A DNA stretch of 64,000 nt from an uncultured Alphaproteobacteria bacterium (GCA_902619045.1 CACNCX010000001.1:592-64591), one strand, 5' to 3'; shown: positions 35,459 to 55,721, numbered from the stretch's first letter. The notes: generated by a model not told the origin, from the sequence alone. A program made the numbers and translations.

Positions 35459-35481
35459 ATGATTTCCTATATTATATTACT

Positions 35482-36195: not shown

Positions 36196-36205
36196 TTTAT
36201 TCCTT

Positions 36206-37351
36206 TCACTTTAATAAATTACTAATCTCATCCTCAGAGAAGTAATTTAAATTTTTAATAGAACTTCTAAGTTCTATTTTTTTATTTTCTTTTGATGATT
36301 TAATAATACTATCTAGTATATCTAAAACGTGAAGACTTAATTCTCCACTACATCTATTTAAACGATTGTTTTTTATTGCATCAACTGTTTCGCTTACACC
36401 TATACCTCTATAGTTAGCAATACCTGCTGATTCATTTGCTTTTTCAGATTTATTTTTAATATTTATTTTACCTAAATTGTTATTCTTGGTATCTATATTT
36501 TCCCAAGCTCCATTTTTTGATTTACAAACTAAAATATCACCGCCAAACATATTTGGATCAGGGATATTTATTGAACCTTTATCACCGTATAACTCGATGT
36601 GATTCTTACTGTGTTTCCAAACATCAAAAGAAAAAAATGAATCAATTAATGCCCCACTCTCAAATTCTATTTGTGAAACTAATGTTGTTGGGATTTCAAC
36701 TTCTATTTCTTGCCCTTGTCTATCGCCACTACCAATAATTCTTTTTTGATAAACTGTTCTTGATTGCGTAAAAACATTTTTCGCAGGACCGAGTAAATTT
36801 ACTAGTGCTGTAAAATAGTATGGACCCATATCAAGAATCGGACCGCCTCCATATTTGTAATAAAAATCTGGATTTGGATGCCAAATTTCATGTCCAGCTA
36901 CACCCATTGAAATACTACCAAGATTTATTTTACCTATTTCATTTTGATCAATAATTTTTTTTGCTTCCTGTATACCAGCACCAAGAAATGTATCTGGGGC
37001 ACAGCCCACATGTAAACCTTTTGAATTGCTTAAATTTACTAACTCTTCACCATGTTCAAACTTTATTGAGAGTGGTTTTTCTGAATAAGAATGTTTTCCA
37101 GCATCAAGAATTGATTTTGAAACTTCAAAATGAACATCTGGTATTGTTAAGTTTATTATTAACTCAATTTCTTTATTAGATAATATCTGGTCTACTGATA
37201 ATTGTTCTACTCCATATTTTTCTGCATAGTTTTTTGCAGCTTCATTTTTAATATCAGCACATGCAACTATTTGAAAATTATTAAAGTACTTCTGGGAATT
37301 TCTGAAATAAATATCAGCAATATTTCCACAACCAATAATTCCTACTTTCAT
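36206..37351 (-). CDS. Gfo/Idh/MocA-family oxidoreductase (ThuB-like), paralog of 57831-58982
   Basis: MKVGIIGCGNIAD Rossmann start. Start moved to the ATG at 37351, 4 nt after the permease stop and preceded by AAGGA. About half identical to the 57831 ORF by eye. Confidence 0.85.
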   Translation of the reverse strand: MKVGIIGCGNIADIYFRNSQKYFNNFQIVACADIKNEAAKNYAEKYGVEQLSVDQILSNKEIELIINLTIPDVHFEVSKSILDAGKHSYSEKPLSIKFEHGEELVNLSNSKGLHVGCAPDTFLGAGIQEAKKIIDQNEIGKINLGSISMGVAGHEIWHPNPDFYYKYGGGPILDMGPYYFTALVNLLGPAKNVFTQSRTVYQKRIIGSGDRQGQEIEVEIPTTLVSQIEFESGALIDSFFSFDVWKHSKNHIELYGDKGSINIPDPNMFGGDILVCKSKNGAWENIDTKNNNLGKINIKNKSEKANESAGIANYRGIGVSETVDAIKNNRLNRCSGELSLHVLDILDSIIKSSKENKKIELRSSIKNLNYFSEDEISNLLK

Positions 37352-37355
37352 AAAA

Positions 37356-38186
37356 CTATTCCTTAACTGCTCCACCTGTTAAACCTGCAACAATATATTT
37401 TTGTAAAGCAAAAAAGAAAACTACTGCTGGAACTAAGGTTAATGAAACATAAGCTAATATTTTACCCCAATCAGTAAAGTACTCACCTCTAAAAACCATT
37501 ATACCCATCGGCCATGAATAAAGAGATTCATCATTAATCATTATAAGAGGCAAAAGGTAATTATTCCAGCTGCCTGTAAGTGTAATAACGCTAACTGTTG
37601 CTAAGATTGGAGTTGATAAAGGAAGAGTAAACCTAAAATAAAATTGGGTATAGCTACAGCCATCACAAACAGCAGCTTCAAATATCTCTTTTGGCATTTG
37701 TCTAAAAAATCCTCGAAAGAGAATTATAGAAAAACCAAGCCCAAATGCAATTTGTGGAATTATAACAGCCCAACTTGTACCCAATAAACCAAAATCACGC
37801 ACTCTTAAAAACAAAGGTAAAATAGCAGTTGCAAATGGAAACATTAGTCCTAGTAAAAAATAATTATAAAGAAATTTATTTGCTGCAAATTTTACATGAG
37901 CAAAAACAAAAGCTGTCATAGAGGCAAATAAGACTACAAAAAAAGTAGTTCCTACTGCGTATACTGTTGAGTTCCATAAAAAAAGCCAGAAATCAGAATT
38001 AATTAAAAGAGATGTATAATTTTCAAACTTCCAGTCTATTGGTAAGCCTAAAGAGTTTGTTCTAAGTTCACCAGTGTGTTTAAAGCCCCCCATTACAGAA
38101 ACGTATAATGGAATAATAATTACTCCTGCTAGAAAAAATAGAAGAAGATACAAATAATAAGTTCTAAAATTTGTTTTCATTATCAT
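37356..38186 (-). CDS. CUT1-type (MalG-like) sugar ABC transporter permease
   Basis: Six TM helices and an EAA loop (FEAAVCDGCSYTQFYFRFTLP). Confidence 0.9.
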   Translation of the reverse strand: MIMKTNFRTYYLYLLLFFLAGVIIIPLYVSVMGGFKHTGELRTNSLGLPIDWKFENYTSLLINSDFWLFLWNSTVYAVGTTFFVVLFASMTAFVFAHVKFAANKFLYNYFLLGLMFPFATAILPLFLRVRDFGLLGTSWAVIIPQIAFGLGFSIILFRGFFRQMPKEIFEAAVCDGCSYTQFYFRFTLPLSTPILATVSVITLTGSWNNYLLPLIMINDESLYSWPMGIMVFRGEYFTDWGKILAYVSLTLVPAVVFFFALQKYIVAGLTGGAVKE

Positions 38187-39063
38187 CCCTCATTAATGTT
38201 CTTTGATAACCAATTGCAATAAATAAACAGATTAAGAATATTACAACTCCAACCGCACTTCCAAAACCAACTTTCATACGCATTACACCAAAATAATATA
38301 AATAAGAAACCATCGAATGCGTTACATTTGAAGGCCCTCCTCCTGTTAGTGGCATAATAATATCAAATAGCTGTAAACTACCTAATAGTGATAAAAATAC
38401 TGAAAGCTTAATTGTCGGAATAAGCATTGGTATTTTAATTCTAAAGGCAGTTGTTATTGGGCCTGCCCCATCTACTTTAGCTGCTTCTAATACTTCTTTT
38501 GAAATAGCTTGCAATCCTGCAATATAAATCATCATGTGAATTCCAAAAAATTTCCAAAATATAACAATTAAAATTGCTACCAATGCCCAATCCTTATCAC
38601 CAAGTACAAATGGTGCCTCTGCACCAAAGAAACCCCAAATTGCAGCAACTAAACCATAATTACCATCATAAATGTATGCCCAGATTAACGCTGTTACTAT
38701 TTCTGCTAAAATAAATGGAAGAAAAAAAACAGTTCTAAAAAAAGCAGCTCCTCTGAGTTTATCTGAAATCATTAAAGCAATTAAAAGAGCAAATGGTAAT
38801 TGAACAAATAATGATATAGCAATTATGTAAAAATTATTTTTGAGTGACATAATAAACACTCTATTTTTGAATAAAAACTCATAATTTTTAAGTCCAACAA
38901 ATTTCTCAGGTGCGCCATAGCCATTCCATCTAAAAAAACTGTAATAGGCTGCTTCACCTATTGGAAGAACTACAAACAAAGTAAATATTGTTAAGGCAGG
39001 TATTAAAAATATTATTATTGTATAATACCTACTAAGTAGTGCATCAAATTTTGCTGATCTCAT
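38164..39063 (-). CDS. CUT1-type (MalF-like) sugar ABC transporter permease
   Basis: EAA loop LEAAKVDGAGPITTAFRIKIP in a polytopic protein. Confidence 0.9.
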   Translation of the reverse strand: MRSAKFDALLSRYYTIIIFLIPALTIFTLFVVLPIGEAAYYSFFRWNGYGAPEKFVGLKNYEFLFKNRVFIMSLKNNFYIIAISLFVQLPFALLIALMISDKLRGAAFFRTVFFLPFILAEIVTALIWAYIYDGNYGLVAAIWGFFGAEAPFVLGDKDWALVAILIVIFWKFFGIHMMIYIAGLQAISKEVLEAAKVDGAGPITTAFRIKIPMLIPTIKLSVFLSLLGSLQLFDIIMPLTGGGPSNVTHSMVSYLYYFGVMRMKVGFGSAVGVVIFLICLFIAIGYQRTLMRDDNENKF

Positions 39064-39072
39064 AGCTATGAA

Positions 39073-39100
39073 CAGGGCTCTTAATTAAAAAAGAGCCCTG
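39073..39100 (-). promoter_or_regulatory. Intra-operon hairpin between the binding-protein and permease genes
   Basis: 10-bp perfect stem cagggctctt/aagagccctg with an 8-nt loop. Only UU follows it on the minus strand, so it is not a full terminator. Confidence 0.6.
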
Positions 39101-39109
39101 ATATTTATA

Positions 39110-40360
39110 TTATTGATTAAATTCCCAAGCTTCTTGAACAGCTTGAGTAGCTTCTTCAGGAGTAATAATTCCTGCCGCTAAATCAGTAGATACGTCATTA
39201 ACAACCCTACCAATATCTGCACCCAAGAACTGATCATAAAATATTTGATGATATTCTGAGTTAGAGATATTTTGTGCAACTTGTTGCAAGAAAGGATTTG
39301 TAAGAGATACATCAGCACCTTTCACGATAGGTATATAAGCACCTTTTCCTGCATCATCTTTTTGAATATCAAGAGATACATAATGCATAATAAATTCAAC
39401 TGCTGAGTCAGGAGCACTGCTTGAGAATAGCCATCCATTTATACCACCAAGTGTATCACCAGCGTCACCGAGACCACCACTCGTCATTGGCATGTTAAAC
39501 ATTCCCATATTATCGTCTCCTAAACCTTCACCACTTGAACTGTTAGCTTTTTGAGAACCATACATCCAGTTACCCATAAGTGCCATTGCACATTTACCGT
39601 CTCCAAAAAAACCTGCCTGATCTGGCCAAGTGTGTGATAAAAATCCTTTTTGAAAAGGTTCTAAAGCAACTAGCTCGAGCATTTGCTCACCTGATTTTAA
39701 GTATTCTGGTCTATCCCAACCACCATTATTAAGTGATTCAAGGAATAATCCTTTTCCACCATTTCTTATGTGGAGGTGTGTCCAAAGAAAGTGAACAGGC
39801 CATTTATCTTTACCACCCATACAAATAGGAGTAATTCCTGCTGCTTTGATTTGTTTTACAGCACTAATTAAATCATCCCATTCTTTGATGGCTGAAACGT
39901 CAACTCCGGCTTGATTGATAAGATCTTTGTTATACCACCAAGCAACTTGTGATACTTGTAAAGGTAAACCTACTCTTTGACCTTCAAATGTAAAAGCATC
40001 TGCTGCTGCTGCACTAACAGTATCCAAATAACTATCTGGTACAACATTGGAGATATCTCTTAAAAAACCAGCTCTGGCTTGATCATACATAACTCCGCCA
40101 CTCCAGCTATAAAATATATCTGGTCTATCATTTGATTGAAGCATTGTAGGTAACTTTGCTTTGAATGATTCATTTTCTAAATACTGCATAACAACAGTGT
40201 GTCCTGTTTTAGCTTCAAATTCTTCAACAGCCCTAACCATGTTAGCATATGAACTTGAGTCTTCACCAAATAAGTGAAGCCACTTTATAGTATCTGCTTT
40301 AACAGAACTAAATGACATCAAAATAGTTAGTGAGAAAAATATTTTTAGTAATAATTTCAT
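39110..40360 (-). CDS. Extracellular solute-binding protein, family 1 (CUT1 sugar ABC)
   Basis: Sec signal MKLLLKIFFSLTILMSFSSVKA, 416 aa, strong SD (GGGAGGA). First gene of the operon. Confidence 0.9.
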   Translation of the reverse strand: MKLLLKIFFSLTILMSFSSVKADTIKWLHLFGEDSSSYANMVRAVEEFEAKTGHTVVMQYLENESFKAKLPTMLQSNDRPDIFYSWSGGVMYDQARAGFLRDISNVVPDSYLDTVSAAAADAFTFEGQRVGLPLQVSQVAWWYNKDLINQAGVDVSAIKEWDDLISAVKQIKAAGITPICMGGKDKWPVHFLWTHLHIRNGGKGLFLESLNNGGWDRPEYLKSGEQMLELVALEPFQKGFLSHTWPDQAGFFGDGKCAMALMGNWMYGSQKANSSSGEGLGDDNMGMFNMPMTSGGLGDAGDTLGGINGWLFSSSAPDSAVEFIMHYVSLDIQKDDAGKGAYIPIVKGADVSLTNPFLQQVAQNISNSEYHQIFYDQFLGADIGRVVNDVSTDLAAGIITPEEATQAVQEAWEFNQ

Positions 40361-40486
40361 TTAATCCTCCCTAAGATTATCGTAGTAAGAAATTTATAAC
40401 ACTAAAGGGATTTTTTTAAACTAAAAAAGGCAATTTTTAGGCTTAAAACCATCTATTTATGCTGTAAGATTAAGCAAAAATTTTTA

Positions 40487-41992
40487 ATGAAAAATAAACC
40501 AAACATCATTATATTTAATCCAGATCAATGGAGAGGAGATATGCTTGGATATCTTGGTTATCCAGGTGCACAAACCCCTAATTTAGATAATATAATTAAA
40601 GAAGACGCAGTTGCATTTAAGAATGCTTTTTGCCAAGCGACAGTTTGTACACCAAGTCGTTGCTCATTTATGACTGGCTGGTATCCACATGTGCATGGTC
40701 ATAGAACAATGCATTATATGCTACATACTGATCAAGGAGACTCTAGTATTTTATCCGAACTAAAAAATAAAGATTACTTTATTTGGTGGGGTGGAAAAAA
40801 TGATTTGATAGCAGGACAAGAGGGTTATCGTAATCATTGTGATATTTATTTTGAACCAACTGATAGAGATTTTCAAAAATGGGGCTATACTCAACAACCA
40901 GGCACACATGGGGGAGATTTATCATGGCGAGGGCCTGAAGATGGAGATAATTATTATAGTTTCTTCAAAGGAAAATTAGATAAAAAAGATAAAGATATTT
41001 ATTTCGATGACGATTGGTCCATGGTTTATGGAGCATTAGATTTTGTAAAAGATTATAAAGAAGATAAACCATTCTGTTTATTTCTACCACTTGGTTATCC
41101 ACATCCTCCTTACTGTGTAGAGGATCCATGGTTCTCTTCAATTGATCGAAGCGTAATACCTAATAGATATCAATACAAAACTTGGGAAGACAAGCCAAGT
41201 CTTCTAAAAGGAATTATGGATGGGCAAAGAATGCAAGATTGGACCGATGAACGTTGGAATGAATTACGAGCAGTATATCTTGGTATGTGTGCAAGAGTAG
41301 ATTATCAATTTGGACTTTTGGTCAATCAACTTAAAGAAAATAATTTGTATGATGATACTTTAATAATTTTTTTATCTGATCATGGTGACTTTACAGGTGA
41401 TTATAATTTAGTTGAAAAAACACAAAATACTTTTCAAGACTGTCTTACTAATGTTCCTCTTATTATTAAACCGCCAAAAAGTGAAAATACATTAAATGGA
41501 GTAAGCGATACAATGATTGAATTAATTGATATTGCTGGAACCATATATGATTACAGTAATATCGAGCCCTCATATTGGCATTTTGGCAAAAGTATTAAAA
41601 ATTTTATTGAACAGAAAACTGATAATCATAGAGAAGAAGTATTTACGGAGGGTGGTAGACTTAGATTAGAAAGACAAGCAAGTGAAAATCAAAGTCTTCA
41701 ATTACCCCATGGTCTTTATTATCCTAGAGTTAGTTTACAAGGTCAAGAGGATGAAATTTTAATGCATACTAAAGCAACAATGTGCAGAAATAAAAAATTT
41801 AAATATATTAAAAGAGCTTACGAGAAAGATGAGTTTTATAATTTAATCGAAGATCCTGGAGAAATTAATAATGTTATTGATGATCCTAAATATGGGTCAG
41901 AACTTAAAAAACTAAAAGATAAAATGCTTTCATGGTATCAAGAAACTTGTGATGTTGTTCCATTAAAAGGTGATGAAAGAGATTTCAATTAA
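40487..41992 (+). CDS. Cys-type sulfatase (S1 / arylsulfatase superfamily), no signal peptide
   Basis: IIIFNPDQWRGD first strand begins at residue 8. Active-site C-T-P-S-R (VCTPSRCSFMTG). LSDHGD block. Confidence 0.9.
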   Translation: MKNKPNIIIFNPDQWRGDMLGYLGYPGAQTPNLDNIIKEDAVAFKNAFCQATVCTPSRCSFMTGWYPHVHGHRTMHYMLHTDQGDSSILSELKNKDYFIWWGGKNDLIAGQEGYRNHCDIYFEPTDRDFQKWGYTQQPGTHGGDLSWRGPEDGDNYYSFFKGKLDKKDKDIYFDDDWSMVYGALDFVKDYKEDKPFCLFLPLGYPHPPYCVEDPWFSSIDRSVIPNRYQYKTWEDKPSLLKGIMDGQRMQDWTDERWNELRAVYLGMCARVDYQFGLLVNQLKENNLYDDTLIIFLSDHGDFTGDYNLVEKTQNTFQDCLTNVPLIIKPPKSENTLNGVSDTMIELIDIAGTIYDYSNIEPSYWHFGKSIKNFIEQKTDNHREEVFTEGGRLRLERQASENQSLQLPHGLYYPRVSLQGQEDEILMHTKATMCRNKKFKYIKRAYEKDEFYNLIEDPGEINNVIDDPKYGSELKKLKDKMLSWYQETCDVVPLKGDERDFN

Positions 41993-42909
41993 TATAATTC
42001 GTTTTCAATTCTTGTAAGCCAATAGTCGACATCCATTTTCTTGTGACCAGTTAATAACCTCCAAAACTTGACAACATTTATTTTATCAAGTCTATTAGTA
42101 TCTGCTTCTTGCCAAGGATAGGACCTCATTAAAATATCATTGATAGTTTGATCCTTAGTTTCATCAGTCCAATACAAAGCTCGGTTTGGTAAAGGTTGAT
42201 ATTTTTTTTCAGGATCCCATAATAGTTCCTGTTTCTCAGTAGGCTGTAATCTTACTTTAAACATATATCTGATATCATCTGAAAAATTAACTCCAGCACC
42301 ATGCCACAATCCATTATGAAAAATTCCTATTGTACCTGCTTTACATATGATATTTTTTTGTCCTTTTATATTTTGATATTTTGCGATTCCCATTTCATTT
42401 ACAATTCTTAAATGTGTACCAGGAATATATCTTGTACCACCCATTTCTTTAGTAACAGCAGTTGGAAAGTAAAATAATTGGATATCGAAAGTAGTTCTTG
42501 GATCAATTGTGCTATCTTGATGATTAACTTGTGACATTTGTCTTTGATTTGCTTTTGCATAATATTTAGAAGGAAATGTTAAGTGAAGAAATTGATGGTC
42601 AACTACAGTTTTTGAACCAACTAAACTATTGATTGCTCCTGAGACAATTTCATTTTTAAATATTTTTTCCAAAGGAGAGTTTAAAGGGTAGGCATCTTTC
42701 AATGCAGTCCCAGCAGGTATTCTAGGTATACTACTAGAGGATTTTATATTTTGAAAGTAGTGCTGAATATTATCAACATCATCAATATCAGTATGCCCAA
42801 TATCATTTAAAAATTCTTTATTGATATCTTCATCAATTAAACCTTCAAAAAAAAGACAGCCACTATTGGCAAATTCTGCCATTTGCTCAGTTGACAATAA
42901 TTTTGTCAT
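41989..42909 (-). CDS. Phytanoyl-CoA dioxygenase (PhyH)-family Fe(II)/2-oxoglutarate oxygenase
   Basis: H-x-D (VNHQDS), a distal His (GLWHGAG) and Arg (RYMFKVR). 306 aa. Confidence 0.8.
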   Translation of the reverse strand: MTKLLSTEQMAEFANSGCLFFEGLIDEDINKEFLNDIGHTDIDDVDNIQHYFQNIKSSSSIPRIPAGTALKDAYPLNSPLEKIFKNEIVSGAINSLVGSKTVVDHQFLHLTFPSKYYAKANQRQMSQVNHQDSTIDPRTTFDIQLFYFPTAVTKEMGGTRYIPGTHLRIVNEMGIAKYQNIKGQKNIICKAGTIGIFHNGLWHGAGVNFSDDIRYMFKVRLQPTEKQELLWDPEKKYQPLPNRALYWTDETKDQTINDILMRSYPWQEADTNRLDKINVVKFWRLLTGHKKMDVDYWLTRIENELY

Positions 42910-42910
42910 T

Positions 42911-43189
42911 TTAAAAATCTCCTTCTTCTATTTTTTCAAAAAAAAACTCATGCTTTAAATATGAAGTTCTAAATTCTTGACCAGGATGCTCTGGAATAGA
43001 TTGACTCGATTGAAACAATCTCCATCCATCCAATAAAGCGTCAAGACCAGTGGGATAAGGTGGTTCATCACTATCCCCTGTCATATGAAGTTTTTTTCCT
43101 GTCCCATCAAATGTTGCCCAAGAAATAACTTCTGCTTCTAGACTTGGAAACTTTAAATAAAGAACTAAAACTTTTTGTCTTTTAGTCAT
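42911..43189 (-). CDS. Hypothetical 92-aa cytosolic protein
   Basis: ORF track. Its ATG directly abuts the upstream sulfatase stop (TAAATG), and its own stop lies 1 nt before the PhyH ATG. No family recognised. Confidence 0.65.
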   Translation of the reverse strand: MTKRQKVLVLYLKFPSLEAEVISWATFDGTGKKLHMTGDSDEPPYPTGLDALLDGWRLFQSSQSIPEHPGQEFRTSYLKHEFFFEKIEEGDF

Positions 43190-44701
43190 TTAGTTTTCTT
43201 TAAAATAATTTTTTAATAATTCCTTTGGAGGATCATATGTTTTAATTTCATTCAGCATAAGATTTTTATATTTGTTTATCAAATCTTCATCATTAATAGG
43301 GTTTAATTGGCCAGGATCTTCCTTCAAATTATAAAGAGCACATTTAGTATCTTCTAATGATTTATGTGGATCCGATTTTCTAAGAATTCTATTAACTTTC
43401 ATTACTGGAATATTTTTAGTAAAGTTAAATGGCTCATGCATTGTAGCAGTTTGCAACTCTTCGTGTGAAAAAAATTGCCTCATATTGGTTGGCATCAATG
43501 TATATTGAAATCTACTTCTATCGTATTGATCAAAATTTTCTGGAAAATGAAAATATGTATAATTTCCATCGGATATATTTATTCCCCCGCCCCAATATCC
43601 ATACAAAGCAAAATGCTCATTTTCACTGTCTTTATCTAGAAAGTTTAATATAGATTTACCTTTAACCTCTTTAGGAAGATTGTGACCATGCATTGTCATG
43701 AATGTTGGCATCAAATCAATATTTTGAGTTACAACATTTCTTTGCTCGCCAGAATATTGTTTGTATTCCGGGTGATAAAAATAAAAAGGTATATTTGCAA
43801 TTTCATTATACAAAGGCATTCTGTTTTTAGCCCACCAATCATGTTCTCCGAGCATGAAACCATGATCTGTAGTTAAAATCAATGCAGTATCATTCCATAA
43901 ATTATTTTCATCAAAATAATCTAAAACCGTACCAAGTAAATAATCACATAGACCAACTAAAGCAATGTAATTGGCTTTTAACTCTGCAACCTCATCATCT
44001 GTTTCTTTCACTCTATCATACTGAGGCCAATCTAATCTTGGGCCAGTATAATTTGTTTTTAGTTTTTCTCTAAATCGCTCTGGCGCAAAAAAAGGTTCGT
44101 GAGGATCAAAAGTTTCTAGTTGAAGAAACCAATTATCAGCATCTTTATTAATATTTATAAAGTCTAAACCAGATTCAAAACATTTAACTGAAGGAAAATC
44201 TTTTTCTTCTTTAATAAATTCACTATTGATTGCGTAATGATAATAACCTGTTTCCCTATCAGTTAAATTTAATTGTGATTGATGATATTTTTCTCTTAAT
44301 TTTTCAAGTGGTGGTTGAACCATGGCTTTCCACGGGTCACTCTCTTGTCCTCTAATAAAATCCCATGAGTTAAATCTATTATGATAGGTTGCGCCACCAT
44401 CTTCAAAGTAATGATAATGATCAGTCACAAGATGAGTATACGTATTATTTAGTCTTAAGATTTCTGGAAATGAATTATCAAATGGTTCTAATGGACCCCA
44501 TGCACGGTGAAGAAAACTTAATCGACCTGAATGCATATCACGTCTTGCCGGCATACATGGCATACTACCAATATAATGATTATTAAATTGAACTGATTTT
44601 TTTGCTAATCTGTTAAAATTTGGTGTTTCAATATATTTACCACCATAAGAATTTAACATTCTTTTATTTAATGAATCAAATAAAAGAAAAACTGTTTTCA
44701 T
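43190..44701 (-). CDS. Cys-type sulfatase-family protein, variant N-terminal metal motif, no signal peptide
   Basis: C-M-P-A-R (GSMPCMPARRDMHSG). TTDHGFMLGEH block. The first strand reads LLFDSLNKR rather than the usual DD/DQ. Confidence 0.85.
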   Translation of the reverse strand: MKTVFLLFDSLNKRMLNSYGGKYIETPNFNRLAKKSVQFNNHYIGSMPCMPARRDMHSGRLSFLHRAWGPLEPFDNSFPEILRLNNTYTHLVTDHYHYFEDGGATYHNRFNSWDFIRGQESDPWKAMVQPPLEKLREKYHQSQLNLTDRETGYYHYAINSEFIKEEKDFPSVKCFESGLDFININKDADNWFLQLETFDPHEPFFAPERFREKLKTNYTGPRLDWPQYDRVKETDDEVAELKANYIALVGLCDYLLGTVLDYFDENNLWNDTALILTTDHGFMLGEHDWWAKNRMPLYNEIANIPFYFYHPEYKQYSGEQRNVVTQNIDLMPTFMTMHGHNLPKEVKGKSILNFLDKDSENEHFALYGYWGGGINISDGNYTYFHFPENFDQYDRSRFQYTLMPTNMRQFFSHEELQTATMHEPFNFTKNIPVMKVNRILRKSDPHKSLEDTKCALYNLKEDPGQLNPINDEDLINKYKNLMLNEIKTYDPPKELLKNYFKEN

Positions 44702-44732
44702 AAATACCAGACTAATACGAAAAAAATAATTA

Positions 44733-46100
44733 TTAAAGTTTTTTCTTTAATCTATGAAAAGAATCAGGATTTAATCCCATTTGACCAGGATTATTTACAT
44801 TTTTAGCTTTTGTAATTTTAGTTGTTATATTTTCAACTTTTTTAATTTTACTTTTAATCTTTTTTCTTAAGGAGGTTACTATTTCATCATAAGTACTAAT
44901 ACCAATTAAGTTATTTAATTCATACGGATCAGCATCAAGATCGTATAAATTTGTCTCTGTGTATTGATTAGATGAAGGTTTATCACTCCCATTAGAGTCT
45001 TGATCAGCAATACAATATTTCCATTTTTCAGTTCTTAAACTTCTAGCTAATTGACTCTCACTTATTTGAACAAAAATTTCATTTTCCCATTTTTTTGATA
45101 TTTTATTTACCAAGGGCAATACTGATCTACCATCACAATGAGAGGTATTTTTGACTTTTGCCAAATCTAAGATTGTTGCATGAATATCTAATATATTGGT
45201 TAGTTCTTTTATACGTCCACCTTGTTGGAAAACATTTCCAATTAAAGAAGTAGGAACCCGTATTGAACTTTCATGACATGAACGTTTATATTCTCTATTT
45301 CGTGTTTTAAAATTATTTCCATGATCTGATGTAAAAATAATTGCACTATCATCAAATAATTTTAAGCTTTTAATTACATCAATCATTCTTCCATAAGCTT
45401 CATCTATTCTCTTCACCATTCCATAATAACCTCCTAAATGTCGAGGAGAAGATCCAACCAGAGATGAAAGATCTGGAGGAGACCACTTACCTGTATATTT
45501 TTCTCTGTATCCAATAGGTGGTGGATAATCATCTGTATTGTTTTGGTGATGTGGCTCAATAAGAGAAACGAAAAGAAAAAATGGTTTTTTTTGATTTAGT
45601 TTTATAAAATTTATAGCTGCATCAGTTATTGCATCAACTCTATATCCTGGAAGAAATACTTTTTTATTTTGTCCATCATAAACATATGTTTCATAAGCAT
45701 CGGAAGTAAATTCTAAAAGATTTGATCCCAACCAATAATCATAACCACCTCTATCCTCTTTTTTAACCGGTTCAGATGAGCCGAGGTGCCACTTTCCAAT
45801 ATATCCAGTAGCATATCCTTCTTTTGATAAATGTTTTGCAAGAGTTTTAATATTTTTTTTTAAAGGTATTCTATTTTTAAAACATCCAGTCTTTGTTGCA
45901 TACATTCCTGATTGTAATGAAGCTCTTGCAGGCCCACAAACTGGTTGGCATGTAAATGAGTTATAAAGATGTGTACCTTCAACTGCATAATGATCGAAGT
46001 TCTCCATCAAGGATAATGGATTGCCATGTAAACCAGAAGTATCCCAGCGTTGTTGATCAGTAAAAAATACAATAATATTTGGTTTAGATTTAATATTCAT
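44733..46100 (-). CDS. Cys-type sulfatase, no signal peptide
   Basis: IIVFFTDQQRWD, C-G-P-A-R (VCGPARASLQSG), TSDHG. Confidence 0.9.
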   Translation of the reverse strand: MNIKSKPNIIVFFTDQQRWDTSGLHGNPLSLMENFDHYAVEGTHLYNSFTCQPVCGPARASLQSGMYATKTGCFKNRIPLKKNIKTLAKHLSKEGYATGYIGKWHLGSSEPVKKEDRGGYDYWLGSNLLEFTSDAYETYVYDGQNKKVFLPGYRVDAITDAAINFIKLNQKKPFFLFVSLIEPHHQNNTDDYPPPIGYREKYTGKWSPPDLSSLVGSSPRHLGGYYGMVKRIDEAYGRMIDVIKSLKLFDDSAIIFTSDHGNNFKTRNREYKRSCHESSIRVPTSLIGNVFQQGGRIKELTNILDIHATILDLAKVKNTSHCDGRSVLPLVNKISKKWENEIFVQISESQLARSLRTEKWKYCIADQDSNGSDKPSSNQYTETNLYDLDADPYELNNLIGISTYDEIVTSLRKKIKSKIKKVENITTKITKAKNVNNPGQMGLNPDSFHRLKKKL

Positions 46101-46112
46101 TATTATTTAGAT

Positions 46113-47612
46113 TTATTTACTAAAAGGTTTTCCTTTATATTTCCTAAGATTGTCAGCGTGTTTTTTTCTATCTGTTTTTTCAAGACGCTCAACATATGTA
46201 TTCCAGACTTTTGAATAAATATTTGCATGATGAGGACCACCTTCTCTAATTACACCTTGAAGTGGATCTCCTCTATCAGCCTCATACATATTTTCTTCAA
46301 TCCACTCATCGATTAAAAACATACCATGAGCTACGAGATCTTTATGCTGATTTGCTAGGTTATTCAACTCATGCGGATCTTTTTCAATATCAAACAGCAT
46401 ATATTTTGGAAAATCTTTTAAACCAGTATCGTACGTTCTTATTAGTAACCAATTATCCCATCTTACAGATCTTTGACAACTCCAAGCACCATGACTAATA
46501 ACTAAATAATCTCTTCCATTTGATGATTTACTATTTGTTAAATTTTCAGTGAAATTAATACCATCCCATCTGTCAGGTTGAGAAGATGAAGTAATTTGAG
46601 AAATAGTTGAAGTTAAATCTAAATTATAAAATTTATTTTCTATAGTACTTCCTTTATTTGTATCTGTTATCCCCGGCCATCTGATTATTAATGGAACTCT
46701 ATTAGTTATATGATCAGCTGTTTGGTGATCTCCCCATACATTTAACTCACCTTGATTTTCTCCGTGGTCTGCTGAAATAATTATTGCAGTATCATCCCAA
46801 AGATTCATTTTTTTTAAATCTTCAAAAACTTTATTTAAATAAAAATCTGCGTATTTAATTCCAGTGTCATACGCATCAATTTGTTCTTTAGCATCAGAAG
46901 TATTTTTAATTTCGCCCACTCCCATTGTATACTTTCCTCCAAGATCTTCATCAAATCCTGGAACTTCTCTAGCGCTATGCGGTCCAAAACTATTCCTTTG
47001 TTTTTTAATTAATTCTTCTGTCACCCATTCTTCAATAGGATCATCTTTAAAAGGATTTCCAAAGTCTTCAGGTGTATCATACGGAGTATGAGGATCCCAC
47101 ATATTTACATGTAAGAACCAATTTTCTTTTTCTCCATTATTTTCTAACCACTTTTTTATGACAGGGTAGACTTCATCAGCATTTTCTAAACCACCTTTTC
47201 CAGTGTCATACGTTTCGGTAAAACCAAACCAAACTTGATAAGCTGTATGTCTTTCAGGGAAAGGACTGATACTTGCTGTATAATATCCTGCATCTCGAAG
47301 AACTTTTCCAAGAGATGTAAAAGCATATTCTCCTCTTAAGCCGCCTTTAAATTCTCTATTCCAAATATTTTTTCTAGGAGCAATATCAGAGAATTCACCG
47401 CCATGATTAACAACTCCAGTTTTGAAACCAAAATTACCTCCAAACAAAGCAGTTCTACTAGGTAGGCACGGTGTGTCAGTTGAATAAAAATTTGTAAACT
47501 TGACTCCTTCTTTTGCTATTGAATCAATCGTAGGAGACGTATTTCTATGATAACCATAACATCCTAAGTGATCAGGTCTTAAAGAGTCTATGTCTACGTA
47601 TAAAATTCTCAT
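46113..47612 (-). CDS. Cys-type sulfatase-family protein, variant N-terminal metal motif, no signal peptide
   Basis: MRILYVDIDSLRPDH, C-L-P-S-R (TPCLPSRTALFGG), SADHGEN. Confidence 0.85.
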   Translation of the reverse strand: MRILYVDIDSLRPDHLGCYGYHRNTSPTIDSIAKEGVKFTNFYSTDTPCLPSRTALFGGNFGFKTGVVNHGGEFSDIAPRKNIWNREFKGGLRGEYAFTSLGKVLRDAGYYTASISPFPERHTAYQVWFGFTETYDTGKGGLENADEVYPVIKKWLENNGEKENWFLHVNMWDPHTPYDTPEDFGNPFKDDPIEEWVTEELIKKQRNSFGPHSAREVPGFDEDLGGKYTMGVGEIKNTSDAKEQIDAYDTGIKYADFYLNKVFEDLKKMNLWDDTAIIISADHGENQGELNVWGDHQTADHITNRVPLIIRWPGITDTNKGSTIENKFYNLDLTSTISQITSSSQPDRWDGINFTENLTNSKSSNGRDYLVISHGAWSCQRSVRWDNWLLIRTYDTGLKDFPKYMLFDIEKDPHELNNLANQHKDLVAHGMFLIDEWIEENMYEADRGDPLQGVIREGGPHHANIYSKVWNTYVERLEKTDRKKHADNLRKYKGKPFSK

Positions 47613-47628
47613 CTTTATCCTTTCTTAA

Positions 47629-49170
47629 TTAAGCACCTGAAACTCTTTTCATTTTAGATGTTTCATCTTTTAATGTGGCTTGCGCAAACTTAAATAATAA
47701 ATCTTTTTTTAATGTTTGTGCATTCGTATTGTCCCATAAATTATTATATTCGTTTGGATCATTTTCTAAATCAAAAAGTTCACCGTAATTAGCTTCTCGG
47801 TAAATAGAAATTTTATAATTATCATTTATGTAAGTTTTTAAATGAGGCATTCTTGGATTATGTCTATTTTCAACAAATATATGTGATCGGATACTTTCCT
47901 TATTACCATAAAATACTTCTGTTTGATCCACTCCTTGCATTTGAGTTGGTATATCAATGCCCGCGACTTTTAAAAATGTTGGGGCAAGATCAACTAAACT
48001 TAATAAAGATGAAGATGATGAATTTTGAGGAACTTTATCTGGCCATCTAACAATAAATGGTAAACGGAGCATGTCTTCATAGTGAAAAGGTCCTTTAGCA
48101 ATTAGACCATGCTGTCCTATAAAGTGACCATGATCAGTAGTAAAAATAATTATGGTATTATCAAGTTCACCCATTTGATCTAACTTATTAATTATTTTTC
48201 CAATATTCTTATCCATAAAACTAACCATGCCATAATAAATTGCCATGTCTTTTTTTAATTCTTCCAAAGGATACAGATGACTCATACATCCATGAGCGTT
48301 AAATGGTGAATGCCAATTTTCGAAATCAGGATTTTTCGTTTGTGTTTTTCCAAAATGAGGTGGATTTAATTCGTGCTCACCTTCTTTTAAAGTTCCAGGT
48401 GACATATCTTCTGGATTATACATTGATGCCCATGGTTCACTTAATACGTATGGTGGGTGTGGATCTTGAAAACTTGTCCAAAGAAAAAATGGCTTGTCAT
48501 CTTTTTGTTGATCTAAAAATTCAATTGATCTTTCAGCGGTCCAGTTTGTGTAGTGATGTTTTTCGTCTAACTTCCAAACCCTATCCGGTCTCGCCCAGTA
48601 GTCATATTCGCGAGCAATAGGAGGAGCGTATTTAGAAGTTTCACCAGGCACTGGTTGAAAATATTCTTTCCAATCACTAAGACCGTTTTGTTCCATCCAA
48701 ATTGCATAATGTTGACCTACATGACTTTCATCAGCATGATTACGTGCTAACTCAATATGTTCAAAGCCATACCAAGGTCCTTTAAAATTTTTCCAAAATT
48801 CCAAATCTCTTAAAGTTGGTTGTCCTTCTATAGATTCCTGACCTGGAACTGAAGTTAATGGCTGGAAATGTGCTTTACCTATTAACCCAGTTGAATATCC
48901 ATTTTTGTATAAAAGTTCTCCAATAGTTTCTACTTCTTCATCTAATTTAACTCCAATTGTCCAAGCTCCATGAGAAGACGGATATTGTCCAGTAATAATA
49001 CTTGCTCTTGATGGCGTGCAAACTGGTGATGGACAATAAGCTCTTGTAAAATTCATTCCCTCGTCACAAAGCTTATCTAAATACGGTGTTTGTATTTTTG
49101 AATTAAATTTTCCAATAGTATCATGATGTTGTTGATCGGAAGTTATTAATAAAATATTTGGCCTTTTCAT
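47629..49170 (-). CDS. Cys-type sulfatase, no signal peptide
   Basis: ILLITSDQQHHD, C-T-P-S-R (VCTPSRASIITGQYP), TTDHGH. Confidence 0.9.
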   Translation of the reverse strand: MKRPNILLITSDQQHHDTIGKFNSKIQTPYLDKLCDEGMNFTRAYCPSPVCTPSRASIITGQYPSSHGAWTIGVKLDEEVETIGELLYKNGYSTGLIGKAHFQPLTSVPGQESIEGQPTLRDLEFWKNFKGPWYGFEHIELARNHADESHVGQHYAIWMEQNGLSDWKEYFQPVPGETSKYAPPIAREYDYWARPDRVWKLDEKHHYTNWTAERSIEFLDQQKDDKPFFLWTSFQDPHPPYVLSEPWASMYNPEDMSPGTLKEGEHELNPPHFGKTQTKNPDFENWHSPFNAHGCMSHLYPLEELKKDMAIYYGMVSFMDKNIGKIINKLDQMGELDNTIIIFTTDHGHFIGQHGLIAKGPFHYEDMLRLPFIVRWPDKVPQNSSSSSLLSLVDLAPTFLKVAGIDIPTQMQGVDQTEVFYGNKESIRSHIFVENRHNPRMPHLKTYINDNYKISIYREANYGELFDLENDPNEYNNLWDNTNAQTLKKDLLFKFAQATLKDETSKMKRVSGA

Positions 49171-49172
49171 AT

Positions 49173-50024
49173 TTACCCTTTTACAGCTCCTTGAACACCT
49201 TCAACAAAATATTTTTGCATAAACAAAAACAAAATAATTATAGGCAGAATAGTTATAACAGACGCAGCTGCCATACCAGACCAATCAACAAAGTATTCAC
49301 CTTTAAAAGCGTACACACCTACAGATAGTGTTCGTATATCAGGATTACCTAATGTGATGACGACTGGTAATAAGAAGTCATTCCATGCATGCAAAACTTG
49401 TAGAATAGAAACTGTGGCTACTACTGGTTTGGTTAAAGGTAACATAATTGAAATAAATGTTCGAACAAAACCCGCTCCATCCATTTTAGCTGCTTCTTCA
49501 AGCTCTACAGGTACTCTCGAAAAATATCCTGCAAACAATAAAATATAAATTACAGGGGTGTGTCCTGCTGTTGCGAGTGTTAATCCGATTAAGTTTTTAG
49601 ATATATTCAAATTATTTAATAAATCAAAAACAGGAATAATTGTGTAACCTTGAGGAATAAAAATTGTACCAATTAAAATTCCAATAAGTATTTTTTTTCC
49701 TGGAAAAGAATATCTTCCAATTACGTAACCAAACATACCAGTTGTTACGACAACTATAATTACGGAGACAACTGTAATAATAAGGGTATTAAAAAAATAT
49801 CTGCCCATATTAGCGCCAAACCATGCTCTTTCAAAATTTTCCCAAACAAGTCGGTCAGGGATTAAGCCTAAGCCTCCCCAAATTTCAAAATCAGTTTTGA
49901 ATGAGGCTGAAAGCACCCAAAGTAATGGATAGATCCAAAAGAAAGAGAAAATAATAAAAGCTATTGTTATAATTAAATATTTAACTTGGTTTTTTTCAGC
50001 AATGAAATTTAGGTATTTACTCAT
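49173..50024 (-). CDS. CUT1-type (MalG-like) ABC transporter permease
   Basis: EAA loop LEEAAKMDGAGFVRTFISIMLP. Start moved to the ATG at 50024 (MSKYLNF...), which overlaps the upstream stop as ATGA. The Cys-rich extension in the track lies inside the upstream gene. Confidence 0.9.
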   Translation of the reverse strand: MSKYLNFIAEKNQVKYLIITIAFIIFSFFWIYPLLWVLSASFKTDFEIWGGLGLIPDRLVWENFERAWFGANMGRYFFNTLIITVVSVIIVVVTTGMFGYVIGRYSFPGKKILIGILIGTIFIPQGYTIIPVFDLLNNLNISKNLIGLTLATAGHTPVIYILLFAGYFSRVPVELEEAAKMDGAGFVRTFISIMLPLTKPVVATVSILQVLHAWNDFLLPVVITLGNPDIRTLSVGVYAFKGEYFVDWSGMAAASVITILPIIILFLFMQKYFVEGVQGAVKG

Positions 50025-50935
50025 ATTCTTCGAGTTCTCCTCATCCATAATCCCTGAAGCACTGTAATAAATAAAACGGCAACACCCCAAAATACACCTG
50101 CAGCACAAGCGTATCCAAGCCTAGGCATTGTGCCAGAGTCGGTTACAAAAGCTGTTCTAAAAATATATATTTCCATAACTTCACTACTAAAGAATGGCCC
50201 TCCAGCAGTCATAGTTTCAATTAAAGGAAAAACATTTAGCGCTCCAACTGCCTCCACAAGAATAATGACAATAGCAAAAGGTAGTACAATTGGTAAAATA
50301 ATATGGATCCATAATCTATATCCTTCAGCACCATCAATTTTTGCGGCATCGTAAACATCTTGAGGGACTGTTTGTAAAGCAGCAAGCCAATACATCATGG
50401 TTATCCCTAGCCATTTCCATACATACACTCCCATTACAGTTGGAAGCACCGTATCTGGGTTTCCAAGAAAATCAATTGGAGCAGAAGTTAAATTAGTAGA
50501 CATTAAAAATTTATTAGCAGGTCCATTAAAAGGGCTAAATACAAAAGTCATTACAATACCAATGATAGCAATTGCAGTAACTACAGGCATAAAGATTACA
50601 GTACGAAAGAAAGGGGCAAGTTTTAAAACCTGATTATTTAAAAATACTGCAATAATGAAACCTAAAACTATTTTTACTGGAACTGTTCCAAACATAAAAA
50701 TAAAAGAACGAATGAATGCATCCCAAAAGAATTCATCATTGACAGCTTCATAATAATTTTGAAGGCCAATAAATTTTGCTTCTTTTGTAAAACCACTCCA
50801 ATCTAATAAAGAAAAATACCAAGACATTCCAATAGGATAAATGACAAACATTCCTGTAAGAATTGAGCATGGTAAAACAAATAAGTAACACCATCTTGCA
50901 TCATATATTTGTTTAGATAGAGGTTTTTTGTGCAT
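50021..50935 (-). CDS. CUT1-type (MalF-like) ABC transporter permease
   Basis: EAA loop VYDAAKIDGAEGYRLWIHIILP in a polytopic protein. Confidence 0.9.
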   Translation of the reverse strand: MHKKPLSKQIYDARWCYLFVLPCSILTGMFVIYPIGMSWYFSLLDWSGFTKEAKFIGLQNYYEAVNDEFFWDAFIRSFIFMFGTVPVKIVLGFIIAVFLNNQVLKLAPFFRTVIFMPVVTAIAIIGIVMTFVFSPFNGPANKFLMSTNLTSAPIDFLGNPDTVLPTVMGVYVWKWLGITMMYWLAALQTVPQDVYDAAKIDGAEGYRLWIHIILPIVLPFAIVIILVEAVGALNVFPLIETMTAGGPFFSSEVMEIYIFRTAFVTDSGTMPRLGYACAAGVFWGVAVLFITVLQGLWMRRTRRI

Positions 50936-50942
50936 AGTAAAA

Positions 50943-50969
50943 AAAGGCGAATTTAAAAAATTCGCCTTT
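50943..50969 (-). promoter_or_regulatory. Intra-operon hairpin between the binding-protein and permease genes (attenuator-like)
   Basis: aaaggcgaattt / aaattcgccttt palindrome. On the minus strand it is followed by UUUU, then the permease ATG 7 nt later. Confidence 0.6.
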
Positions 50970-50980
50970 AGATATTTTGT

Positions 50981-52513
50981 TTAAAGTTCTTGATACTTTT
51001 CAGCACCATAATTTGAGTATACATCCCAATTAGGGAAGACCCAATCATCACGAGTTACATTAGCACCGTCTGCTCTTGCCTCTTCAACAGCTTTATCAAG
51101 AGCATCTTCATACCTTTGATTACAATCTTTAAGCTGTGCTTCCACACCTTTAAGTTGTCCAGTATACAACCCTTGAATAACTAGAGCCAAAGAAGGATCT
51201 GGTACTCTAGACTTTGCAGCTACAACACCAACATCTTTATTTCTTACAATTGGATTAGGTCCAACAAGTATGTTTTCAGCAAACATAGATAAAGCTTGTG
51301 CTGATGGTCCGGTTAAACCAGCTTTAGCAACTGCATCTGGATTAACAGCTGGATCTGCGGCACCAACAGTTTGAGCCCAGTAAATTTGACCTTGCTCAGT
51401 TCCCATAAATCTTATCAGATCACCAGCAAATGGTCCCATTGTACTATTAGCACTTAACCAAAAAGTATTTGATCCACCTTCTGCAATGTAAAGTGGTTGT
51501 GCTTCTTTTCCATCTGGAACTGGTTCACTTGCAATACCATATTTCCAATCTGGAGCATCTCTTCCCCAAACTCCAATACACCAAGGACCTTGGAATATCA
51601 TTCCTGCTGCACCTTGAGGCATCAAAGCTCTAGCTTGAGGAGCATTCATACTCATAACTCCTGGGAAGGCACTACCATCTGACTTTAATTGAAGAAGTAA
51701 TTCAACTGCTTCCATATATTGATCAGATGCAATTTGGAATTTACCGTTTTGGAAATTAATGTGTCTGTTTGTAAAGCCACCTCTTCCACTATGTGCTCCA
51801 CCTACTTGTCCAAATGTATGGACAACATCTTCCCATCGATTAACTTGGTTACCACCAATAATCCAACCATAATACTGACCATTACCATTTTTAGTAATTT
51901 TTTTAGCAGCATCTCTGATTTCAGAATATGTCATTCGACCAGCTTGAGGATCATAGCCAGCCTCACTCATATATTTTTCACTATATAGAAGACAGGTTCC
52001 CGTTCTCTTATTTGCTGTTAAACATGTTCCATAAGTCTTTCCATTGAATTGGTTGACACCAGGCAGATAAACACCACTAGGAAATGCAGCTAACCATTCG
52101 TCGATGTTTTCAATGTAGTCATCCCATGGTTGAACCCAACCTTCAGCTACTGCAACACCTGGATCCATTCCTAACGGTAATTGAAATACATCATGAACAG
52201 TTCCATTTCTTATAGCGATTGGAACAATTTTATTTATTTCTTTCCATGGCAATCCATCATATTCAATAGTGATACCTCTTGAAGCTGCATATTCTGGAAA
52301 TAATTTTTTCCAAAAGACACCTTTCATATCACCACTATCAATCCATCGCATATTACCACCAGTTGTTGGTAATGGTTTTAGTGGATCAGGAATATTATAT
52401 TCTCCAGCAAATAGTTTTGAAGGTATAGATCCTGCTGACATCATTGCACCTGCAGCAAGAGCTCCTTTCATAACTGTACGTCTAGAGATTTTTAATTCTT
52501 TTTTCTTTTTCAT
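50981..52513 (-). CDS. Large (510 aa) solute-binding protein with twin-arginine (Tat) signal peptide
   Basis: The N-terminus KISRRTVMKGALAAGAMMSAGS fits the S/T-R-R-x-F/L-K-type Tat consensus. Strong SD (GGGAGGA). First gene of the sulfatase operon. Confidence 0.85.
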   Translation of the reverse strand: MKKKKELKISRRTVMKGALAAGAMMSAGSIPSKLFAGEYNIPDPLKPLPTTGGNMRWIDSGDMKGVFWKKLFPEYAASRGITIEYDGLPWKEINKIVPIAIRNGTVHDVFQLPLGMDPGVAVAEGWVQPWDDYIENIDEWLAAFPSGVYLPGVNQFNGKTYGTCLTANKRTGTCLLYSEKYMSEAGYDPQAGRMTYSEIRDAAKKITKNGNGQYYGWIIGGNQVNRWEDVVHTFGQVGGAHSGRGGFTNRHINFQNGKFQIASDQYMEAVELLLQLKSDGSAFPGVMSMNAPQARALMPQGAAGMIFQGPWCIGVWGRDAPDWKYGIASEPVPDGKEAQPLYIAEGGSNTFWLSANSTMGPFAGDLIRFMGTEQGQIYWAQTVGAADPAVNPDAVAKAGLTGPSAQALSMFAENILVGPNPIVRNKDVGVVAAKSRVPDPSLALVIQGLYTGQLKGVEAQLKDCNQRYEDALDKAVEEARADGANVTRDDWVFPNWDVYSNYGAEKYQEL

Positions 52514-53032: not shown

Positions 53033-53033
53033 T

Positions 53034-55719: not shown

Positions 55720-55721
55720 CT

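Follow-up and report, generated by a model that had tools for sequence, protein, structure and literature searches.

How are the motif cysteines of sulfatases converted to formylglycine (FGly) when no gene for a recognisable maturase lies nearby? The question is raised by five sulfatase genes in a 64,000-nucleotide stretch of DNA (hereafter, the window) from an uncultured alphaproteobacterium; the host is a SAR11-type (Pelagibacteraceae) genome. Contigs bearing proteins of the window reach 0.88–1.26 Mb, and the genome is streamlined. A preliminary description of this DNA held the absence of a nearby maturase to be notable and saw candidates for the missing activity in two products of the same operon, a PhyH-type oxygenase and a 92-residue protein (P92).

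Five Predicted Cytoplasmic Sulfatases

Sulfatase S1 is encoded on the + strand (40487..41992); it matches the Sulfatase domain (PF00884) with E 1.6e-33 and has Cys54 in the motif CTPSR (nt 40646–40660). The other four lie on the – strand: S2 (43190..44701; E 5e-28; Cys49 in CMPAR, nt 44543–44557), S3 (44733..46100; E 5e-47; Cys55 in CGPAR, nt 45924–45938), S4 (46113..47612; E 4.5e-40; Cys49 in CLPSR, nt 47454–47468), and S5 (47629..49170; E 2e-55; Cys51 in CTPSR, nt 49006–49020). The earlier call of five Cys-type enzymes was thus borne out, with PF00884 found by Pfam in all five ORFs (E 5e-28 to 2e-55) and a single C-x-P-x-R site in each, within residues 49–55. In the order of S1 to S5, the extended motifs are CTPSRCSFMTG, CMPARRDMHSG, CGPARASLQSG, CLPSRTALFGG and CTPSRASIITG; an example of a sulfatase peptide is PVCTPSRASIITG. 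All five conform to the signature of sulfatase family S1 (C/S-x-P-x-R, then xxxx-[TSG]-G near the N-terminus), and at the sequence level C-x-P-x-R is here a family signature rather than a chance motif. With a Cys-type signature in 5/5 cases, the preliminary description was also correct that these proteins need conversion of Cys to FGly, both FGly and sulfate-ester hydrolysis being predicted properties of S1–S5.

Because the Sulfatase domain starts at residue 3–7 in S1–S5 (Pfam), the proteins, S5 included, lack a signal peptide and are, on this criterion, cytoplasmic. Their mutual identity is just 21–25%, so they represent five subfamilies and not recent duplicates.

The best PDB sequence matches of S1–S5 include 4UPI, 4UPH and 2VQR (arylsulfatase/phosphonate monoester hydrolase, PMH) and the choline sulfatase BetC (6FNY, 7PTH), which resemble the window enzymes in being of the S1 fold, Cys-type and without signal peptide. 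The nearest relatives of S1 are 4UPI and 4UPH, cytoplasmic alphaproteobacterial arylsulfatase/PMH proteins, those of S5 are S1_30A (E 1e-47) and a GlcNAc-6-sulfatase (E 5e-46), and S4 has only remote relatives. Since the similarity to the arylsulfatase/PMH and BetC proteins is remote (E 1e-23 to 1e-48, in partial alignments), no substrate can be transferred from them; assigning substrates to S1–S5 through PDB relatives was tried and dropped for this reason. A search of the literature on SAR11 sulfatases and maturases returned nothing beyond one brief reference to two sulfatases close to a TRAP operon.

A Nine-Gene Operon Next to a Sugar Module

S2–S5 belong to an operon of nine genes on the – strand that begins with a solute-binding protein and ends with PhyH. 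The binding protein (SBP_bac_1, 50981..52513; PF01547, E 6e-17) carries a TAT signal (PF10518) and is followed by two ABC permeases matching PF00528, the first of CUT1 type (50021..50935) and the second at 49173..50108. The second permease probably starts further downstream than the listed TTG, because gene calls on related contigs are 283–291 aa long. Downstream of S2 come P92 (42911..43189), an ORF without match in Pfam or NCBIfam, and PhyH (41989..42909), a predicted Fe(II)/2-oxoglutarate dioxygenase (PF05721, E 1.6e-11). The S2 stop abuts the P92 start (0 nt), and a single nucleotide separates P92 from PhyH. S1 is convergent with PhyH, their 3' ends overlapping by 4 nt.

A second sugar module, also on the – strand (34145..40360; Pfam), comprises a solute-binding protein, two permeases, a GFO/IDH/MocA oxidoreductase, ThuA and a xylose isomerase (TIGR02630, 653 bits vs a cut-off of 533). 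In related genomes this module directly follows P92–PhyH, as seen upon comparison of the islands. The island sulfatases are flexible among strains, with 0 to 5 per strain.

No Maturase within about 84 kb

The statement that the window lacks FGE and anSME withstood three kinds of search. A Pfam scan of its 62 main non-nested ORFs (≥90 aa) detected no FGE-sulfatase (PF03781), Radical_SAM or SPASM domain, and the CxxxCxxC motif was absent from every window ORF of ≥150 aa. When the window and 36 SAR11-like loci (together 713 kb, partly redundant) were searched by six-frame tblastn with human FGE (verified as identical to PDB 1Y1E) and E. coli AslB, nothing matched at E ≤ 10; both positive controls were recovered, the FGE of a Streptomyces locus (L050) being found at 1e-95. 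About 10 kb past each window end was likewise devoid of FGE/anSME domains, bringing the DNA covered to about 84 kb. In the loci examined from 29 related SAR11-like assemblies, neither FGE nor a radical-SAM anSME was present, and the flexible sulfatase cassette is never accompanied by a maturase gene there.

We also searched metagenomes for a SAR11 FGE, by AT-biased back-translation of the PTEAEWE motif, followed by tblastn with a GC filter and then by a homologue search. No SAR11 FGE was identified among the matches listed, which is not evidence of absence; the best low-GC FGE candidate listed was Polaribacter-like (Flavobacteriia). One of the contigs, L164, was considered as a relative of the lineage and looked unrelated, its sulfatases being 24–28% identical to those of the window.

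How much weight does such an absence deserve? In B. thetaiotaomicron all 28 sulfatases are activated by a single anSME (10.1101/2020.11.20.392076). In E. coli, Cys, though not Ser, becomes FGly in the absence of any FGE, and a third FGly-forming system is suspected (PMC8379841; 10.1101/2020.11.20.392076). Given that a single unlinked maturase can be enough for many sulfatases and that E. coli needs no FGE for the Cys conversion, the lack of a linked maturase is weak evidence. Finding none within about 84 kb is ordinary for sulfatases, and the premise that made the absence notable is accordingly a weak one. The either/or conclusion drawn from it, that the maturase is encoded elsewhere or an unrecognised activity does the job, is logically safe.

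The comparison with B. thetaiotaomicron goes further, as there, too, multiple sulfatases of different subfamilies occur in substrate-utilisation loci without a maturase gene of their own. However, that organism is an anaerobe whose enzymes, encoded in PULs, are mostly exported and Ser- or Cys-type, and its unlinked anSME is known. Here we deal with an aerobic oligotroph having five predicted cytoplasmic Cys-type sulfatases behind an ABC importer, and no maturase in about 84 kb.

In its cytoplasmic Cys-type sulfatases, with no FGE in view, the window resembles the E. coli case. This likeness bears on a real, if tentative, possibility: that the genome has no canonical maturase at all, and that a generic cytoplasmic Cys-to-FGly activity of the E. 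coli kind, encoded outside the region and unrelated to PhyH–P92, modifies S1–S5. The FGE-independent FGly formation and the suspected third system of E. coli (PMC8379841; 10.1101/2020.11.20.392076) speak for such an activity, as do the 0/29 SAR11-like assemblies in which a maturase accompanies the cassette and the kinship of S1 with cytoplasmic alphaproteobacterial arylsulfatase/PMH proteins. On the other side, our data give no sign that the genome is without a canonical maturase gene. FGE or anSME is encoded by most bacteria that possess S1 sulfatases, a further point against this explanation. For E. coli it is established that FGE is lacking and that AslB/YdeM are dispensable, whereas the absence of FGE and anSME here is known from the region examined alone.

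PhyH and P92 Form a Widespread Pair

The preliminary description correctly recognised the operon-embedded oxygenase as PhyH-type (PF05721, 45.4 bits vs a cut-off of 22). The 2-His-1-carboxylate iron triad and the 2-oxoglutarate-binding Arg are present, and the residues concerned (H130-x-D132, H203 and R214) are invariant among 22 orthologues from five phyla; the subfamily also has a conserved C-terminal extension. The best PDB sequence match of PhyH is very remote (E 0.002). In a low-confidence model of a P92–PhyH fusion (P0328), the PhyH core has small-molecule hydroxylases as its structural neighbours, namely proline hydroxylase, FtmOx1, PHYHD1, SptF and GriE.

P92 matched nothing in Pfam or NCBIfam, nor in a profile search of PDB sequences. 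It is about 65% identical across phyla, from SAR11 to Streptomyces, with 26 invariant positions that include neither Cys nor His, and the family occurs at least 480 times in a one-genome-per-species collection. The AlphaFold model (pLDDT 79) predicts a β-rich fold, for which the best Foldseek match in the PDB had only E 0.29 and TM 0.37. A GDSD stretch raised the idea of a carrier protein, which we rejected, as the Ser varies within the family and the model is rich in β-structure.

P92 adjoins PhyH in 95/96 loci (58/59 outside SAR11). In the full-length fusion P0328, confirmed by Pfam, P92, a linker and PhyH make up one polypeptide, and by reading of the sequence P0311 and P0320 have the same layout. 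The P0328 model (mean pLDDT 65, pTM 0.56) is too poor to define a P92–PhyH interface. From its conservation and distribution, we consider P92 an undescribed conserved family and the obligate partner of one PhyH subfamily. Like PHYHD1, proline hydroxylase H11, GriE, SptF and FtmOx1, its nearest structural matches, this PhyH belongs to PF05721 and has the HxD...H triad plus Arg. Unlike those known enzymes, which lack such a partner, it has an obligate one of about 90 aa, sometimes fused, together with the C-terminal extension.

Fe/2OG alkylsulfatases of the AtsK/Rv3406 type are 2-oxoglutarate oxygenases linked to sulfate-ester metabolism; members of the TauD family, they act on alkyl sulfates by oxidative cleavage and are not known to have a small partner. 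PhyH, by contrast, is not of the TauD family, and alkylsulfatase activity is not indicated for it.

Does the Pair Mature Sulfatases?

If PhyH–P92 were itself the suspected third route, an O2- and 2-oxoglutarate-dependent FGly-generating system, then island-bearing SAR11-type genomes would lack both FGE and anSME. PhyH would hydroxylate the Cβ of the motif Cys, giving a thiohemiacetal that would break down to the aldehyde and release sulfide, and P92 would serve as a docking or substrate-presenting subunit. In principle such a reaction is chemically plausible, PhyH retains its full catalytic triad, and the region is without FGE or anSME. S2, P92 and PhyH are tightly packed (0 and 1 nt) within a sulfatase operon, and all 26 SAR11-like assemblies with island sulfatases also have the pair. 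The conservation of P92 across phyla (about 65%) suggests a conserved macromolecular partner.

Comparative genomics nevertheless did not support the two proteins as maturase candidates. Outside SAR11, a sulfatase occurs within 10 kb of the pair in only 3/59 loci, so that in the local context (≤10 kb) its occurrence is not tied to sulfatases. In one of them, Streptomyces L050, sulfatase and PhyH–P92 are found together with a PF03781 FGE (E 2e-81); in this single case the pair accompanies rather than replaces a canonical maturase. Three SAR11-like variants (L033–L035) keep P92–PhyH with no sulfatase within 10 kb, the pair there belonging to an ABC/GFO/ThuA/XylA operon that also encodes a GHL6-type glycosidase. 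The only recurrent neighbour outside SAR11 is a divergent AraC regulator seen in 36 loci from Actinobacteria; such a regulator is typical of inducible small-molecule catabolism, and the structural neighbours of PhyH are small-molecule oxygenases. Finally, E. coli, in which Cys is converted without FGE, showed no DNA-level match to P92–PhyH in a search of limited sensitivity. The local scarcity of sulfatases does not refute a maturase role, since a maturase gene may lie far from the sulfatases it serves, but on the whole we regard such a role as highly improbable.

Outside SAR11, neighbour clustering, Pfam analysis of the immediate neighbours and a census with the window proteins revealed no pathway shared among the loci that carry the pair. 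Carbohydrate genes are scattered nearby (CUT1 permeases in 7/59 loci; also GH20, GH85, LacI and an APH kinase), and the neighbourhoods are heterogeneous and often housekeeping in character (TatC, Zn peptidase, MoCF). This last feature would fit P92 being a dedicated protein substrate or regulatory target of the PhyH hydroxylase, its place in a sulfatase operon being incidental; so would a degree of conservation unusual for a 90-aa protein, with invariant residues that include no Cys or His. Yet the natural fusions, with their long flexible linker, are more easily reconciled with a subunit or domain than with a substrate that is turned over, and PhyH-clan enzymes are known as small-molecule oxygenases, making this explanation, too, very unlikely in our view. 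The contexts described above point to PhyH–P92 as an autonomous, widespread paired module, mostly without sulfatases nearby.

A Proposed Uptake-and-Desulfation Island

We put at about 0.5 the probability of the following joint reading: the locus is a strain-variable uptake-and-desulfation island, its maturase is encoded elsewhere, and PhyH–P92 is a separate two-part oxygenase. The TAT-exported binding protein and the two permeases would import small sulfated organics, probably sulfated sugars or oligosaccharides, a substrate class suggested by transporter type and neighbouring genes only. The five divergent cytoplasmic sulfatases would then strip different sulfate esters, and the desulfated products would feed the adjacent GFO/ThuA/xylose-isomerase module. 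Conversion of the motif Cys to FGly would occur in the cytoplasm through a factor encoded beyond the approximately 84 kb examined, most likely a canonical maturase elsewhere on the chromosome; O2-dependent FGE is more plausible than anSME, because this is an aerobic surface-ocean cell. PhyH and P92 would not be that factor but would together constitute an autonomous, two-part Fe(II)/2-oxoglutarate oxygenase, probably acting on a small molecule. Whereas gene content, motifs, cytoplasmic location, packing, pairing and the lack of FGE and anSME in the region are observed, the substrate class, a maturase elsewhere and the role of PhyH–P92 are what we infer from them.

The following points count against this reading. 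In the regions covered, neither FGE nor anSME turned up for this lineage. With sulfatases that are flexible (0–5 per strain) in a streamlined genome, a core-genome maturase elsewhere is not an obvious expectation. Several of the low-GC marine metagenome contigs listed (L118, L164 and L208) have FGE directly beside sulfatases. Furthermore, S1–S5 have no more than a remote relationship to characterised enzymes.

For now, the locus amounts to an ordinary sulfatase operon with no maturase close by. If complete genomes turned out to lack FGE and anSME, they would offer an unusually small and directly testable search space for an unidentified Cys-to-FGly activity. What is new is an undescribed 92-aa family, tied obligately to one PhyH subfamily by adjacency or fusion, in a probable two-part oxygenase. 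In ecological terms, the island points to uptake and desulfation of small sulfated organics by some SAR11-type cells, and to strong differences between strains.

The Sulfatase Operon

The five ORFs previously described as Cys-type sulfatases (S1, 40487-41992, plus strand; S2, 43190-44701, S3, 44733-46100, S4, 46113-47612, and S5, 47629-49170, all minus strand) were confirmed as such: all matched Pfam Sulfatase, and each contained a single C-x-P-x-R site, at residues 49-55, within the full sulfatase signature. In all five the domain starts at residue 3-7; they therefore lack a signal peptide and are cytoplasmic. Their mutual identity is only 21-25% and solved sulfatases in the PDB are only remote relatives (best E values 1e-23 to 1e-48); hence, S1-S5 represent five different subfamilies, presumably with five separate specificities.

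The minus-strand genes are spaced by 0-45 nt, in the order TAT-signal binding protein, two permeases, S5, S4, S3, S2, P92 (a 92-aa protein, 42911-43189) and PhyH (an Fe(II)/2-oxoglutarate dioxygenase, 41989-42909), with spacers of 0 nt (S2/P92) and 1 nt (P92/PhyH). S1 is convergent with PhyH and overlaps its 3' end; beyond it lie another ABC system of CUT1 type and the genes for a GFO/IDH/MocA oxidoreductase, ThuA and a genuine xylose isomerase (GFO-ThuA-XylA). Both CUT1-type systems (37356-40360 and 49173-52513) are missing an ATPase gene, and the two ABC_tran genes of the window (54982-55719 and 61089-61835) are both part of CUT2 systems; a shared ATPase must be encoded elsewhere.

Clusters of cytoplasmic Cys-type sulfatases behind an ABC importer are a known type of locus, to which this operon belongs; we found almost no sulfatase literature for the SAR11-type lineage of the window. 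The ABC system would import small organic compounds that carry sulfate, probably sulfated sugars or oligosaccharides judging from the transporter class and the neighbors, the five sulfatases would desulfate them, and the products would enter the adjacent sugar module.

The window has a G+C content of ~31% and genes typical of an alphaproteobacterium (cox operon, DUF3035, lpxK, IleRS). Identical copies of its proteins occur in GCA_9026xxxxx single-cell assemblies from marine surface bacteria and in MAGs listed by NCBI as Pelagibacteraceae bacterium, so the genome is of SAR11 type. Two tandem ammonium-transporter genes (353-3708, minus strand) flank a 124-aa ORF (1917-2291) devoid of Pfam matches, an arrangement also found on a related contig. 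A second PhyH oxygenase (54032-54979, in the region 53034-57719, minus strand; Pfam E 1e-30) scores above the PhyH next to P92; its neighbors are a protein of the fatty acid desaturase family and a sugar ABC system of CUT2 type, and this trio recurs in related genomes, some with two desaturases.

Search for a Sulfatase Maturase

A Pfam scan of the 62 main non-nested window ORFs of at least 90 aa returned no FGE-sulfatase, Radical_SAM or SPASM domain, and maturase domains were likewise absent from the 10 kb past either window end. Six-frame tblastn with human FGE (identical to PDB 1Y1E) and E. coli AslB (from NC_000913) gave no match at E ≤ 10 in the window and 36 SAR11-like loci (713 kb, partly redundant), while the positive controls were recovered at 1e-95 and 0. 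No CxxxCxxC motif occurred among window ORFs of at least 150 aa. The reported lack of the two known maturases in this region, FGE and anSME, therefore stands.

Taken alone, this absence does not mean much, because the window is ~5% of a genome of such size, B. thetaiotaomicron relies on one anSME to activate the whole set of its 28 S1 sulfatases (10.1101/2020.11.20.392076), and E. coli, without FGE, turns Cys but not Ser into formylglycine (PMC8379841). We suppose that the factor generating formylglycine has its gene elsewhere, and give a canonical FGE or anSME elsewhere in the genome a probability of about 0.5.

A non-canonical activity like that of E. coli, where a third, unidentified maturation system is suspected (PMC8379841), is a less probable but serious alternative. 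Non-canonical routes gain from the behavior of the sulfatases as flexible cargo, with which no maturase travels in the 29 SAR11-like assemblies, and from the position of FGE directly beside sulfatases on several low-GC marine contigs among the metagenome matches listed. When SAR11 FGE was sought in metagenomes with an AT-biased motif, no SAR11 sequence was among those matches, the best low-GC candidate being Polaribacter-like.

Genomic Context of the P92-PhyH Pair

The preliminary description had also put forward PhyH and P92 as candidate maturases. Sulfatases (one to five) do lie beside the pair in 26 of 29 distinct SAR11-like assemblies. The surrounding island (window ~34145-54017; loci L014-L036 and L055) is hypervariable, with 0 to 5 sulfatases and no fewer than three distinct CUT1 transporters exchanged among variants; P92-PhyH and GFO-ThuA-XylA are constant, while sulfatases and transporters vary. 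One variant (L030) carries a GMC oxidoreductase and an HpcH/HpaI aldolase between S4 and S3. Three variants (L033-L035) keep the pair with no sulfatase within 10 kb: here it sits inside another CUT1 transporter operon, followed by GFO-ThuA-XylA, with a GHL6/GlmA-like glycosidase adjoining.

Outside SAR11, the PhyH partner was present in 58 of 59 loci, and a sulfatase within 10 kb in only 3; CUT1 permeases occurred in 7 and GFO, ThuA or XylA in none. Within this 10-kb context, the pair is tied to sulfatases only in the SAR11-like lineage. One of these three sulfatase-linked loci, from Streptomyces sp. NPDC019224 (L050, 163-12753), encodes a binding protein, GH20, AraC, PhyH-P92, a sulfatase, LacI, GH85, a canonical FGE and a PIG-L deacetylase; here the pair occurs alongside FGE and not in its place. 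In gene content, L050 resembles a utilization system for sulfated N-glycans or GlcNAc sulfate. In another Streptomyces locus (L011), a 436-aa protein without Pfam match (3686-4996, plus strand) lies between two sulfatases, beside AraC and PhyH-P92.

Other neighborhoods were heterogeneous (P450/ECH/SCP2/metallo-beta-lactamase; GH20/SIS/APH; methyltransferase/GST/CoA-transferase), with APH kinase, TatC and MR_MLE dehydratase as further neighbors. An APH/EcKL-family kinase adjoins the pair in L053 (11186-12217), L085 (11180-12220) and L099 (10434-11417), which may point to a connection with amino sugars in some lineages. In two Caulobacterales loci the kinase gene has the same direction as the pair and overlaps the PhyH end; in L099 it is on the opposite strand, with GH20 and a SIS-domain gene close by.

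Maturases need no linkage to their targets. Nevertheless, the rarity of nearby sulfatases outside SAR11, the variants with no sulfatase within 10 kb, the FGE in L050 and the heterogeneous neighborhoods together argue against a dedicated maturase role; the PhyH core, in a low-confidence model, resembles small-molecule hydroxylases, and E. coli genomes contain no DNA-level match to the pair. We consider such a role improbable, and the earlier interpretation gains only partial support. Other roles for the pair, e.g., P92 as the protein substrate of PhyH, have a very slim chance.

P92 and Its PhyH Partner

P92 had no match in Pfam, NCBIfam or PDB sequences, and its predicted fold, a small sheet and one helix (pLDDT 79), had no significant structural neighbors. 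Related ~90-aa proteins from Streptomyces, Kribbella, Caulobacter, Phenylobacterium, Myxococcota and gammaproteobacterial MAGs share 60-70% identity with it. Across phyla identity is about 65%, and 26 positions are invariant, with no Cys or His among them. At least 480 places encode it in a one-genome-per-species collection, and 344 clusters were present in a library of 1.84 billion representatives.

A PhyH orthologue directly adjoins P92 in 95 of 96 fetched loci, the exception being a contig end. P92 precedes PhyH in Proteobacteria; Actinobacteria have the reverse order, the stop codon of one gene overlapping the start codon of the next, and 36 of their loci also carry a divergent AraC regulator. 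One protein, P0328, joins P92 and PhyH at full length through a linker, and Pfam confirmed its PhyH domain; by reading, two more (P0311 and P0320) have this layout, one frameshifted and one truncated. The PhyH partners share a conserved C-terminal extension and invariant H130-x-D132, H203 and R214, so they appear to be active Fe(II)/2-oxoglutarate oxygenases. The near-constant adjacency, the fusion and the conserved PhyH residues therefore suggest that P92 and the members of this PhyH subfamily together make up a single enzyme of two parts.

We found no description of this pairing in the literature; on a Streptomyces megaplasmid, RefSeq lists the P92 homologue as a 'hypothetical protein' beside a 'phytanoyl-CoA dioxygenase family protein'. 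P92 is the founder of an undescribed, highly conserved family defining a two-part PhyH oxygenase, and this module is a less ordinary result than the sulfatase operon.
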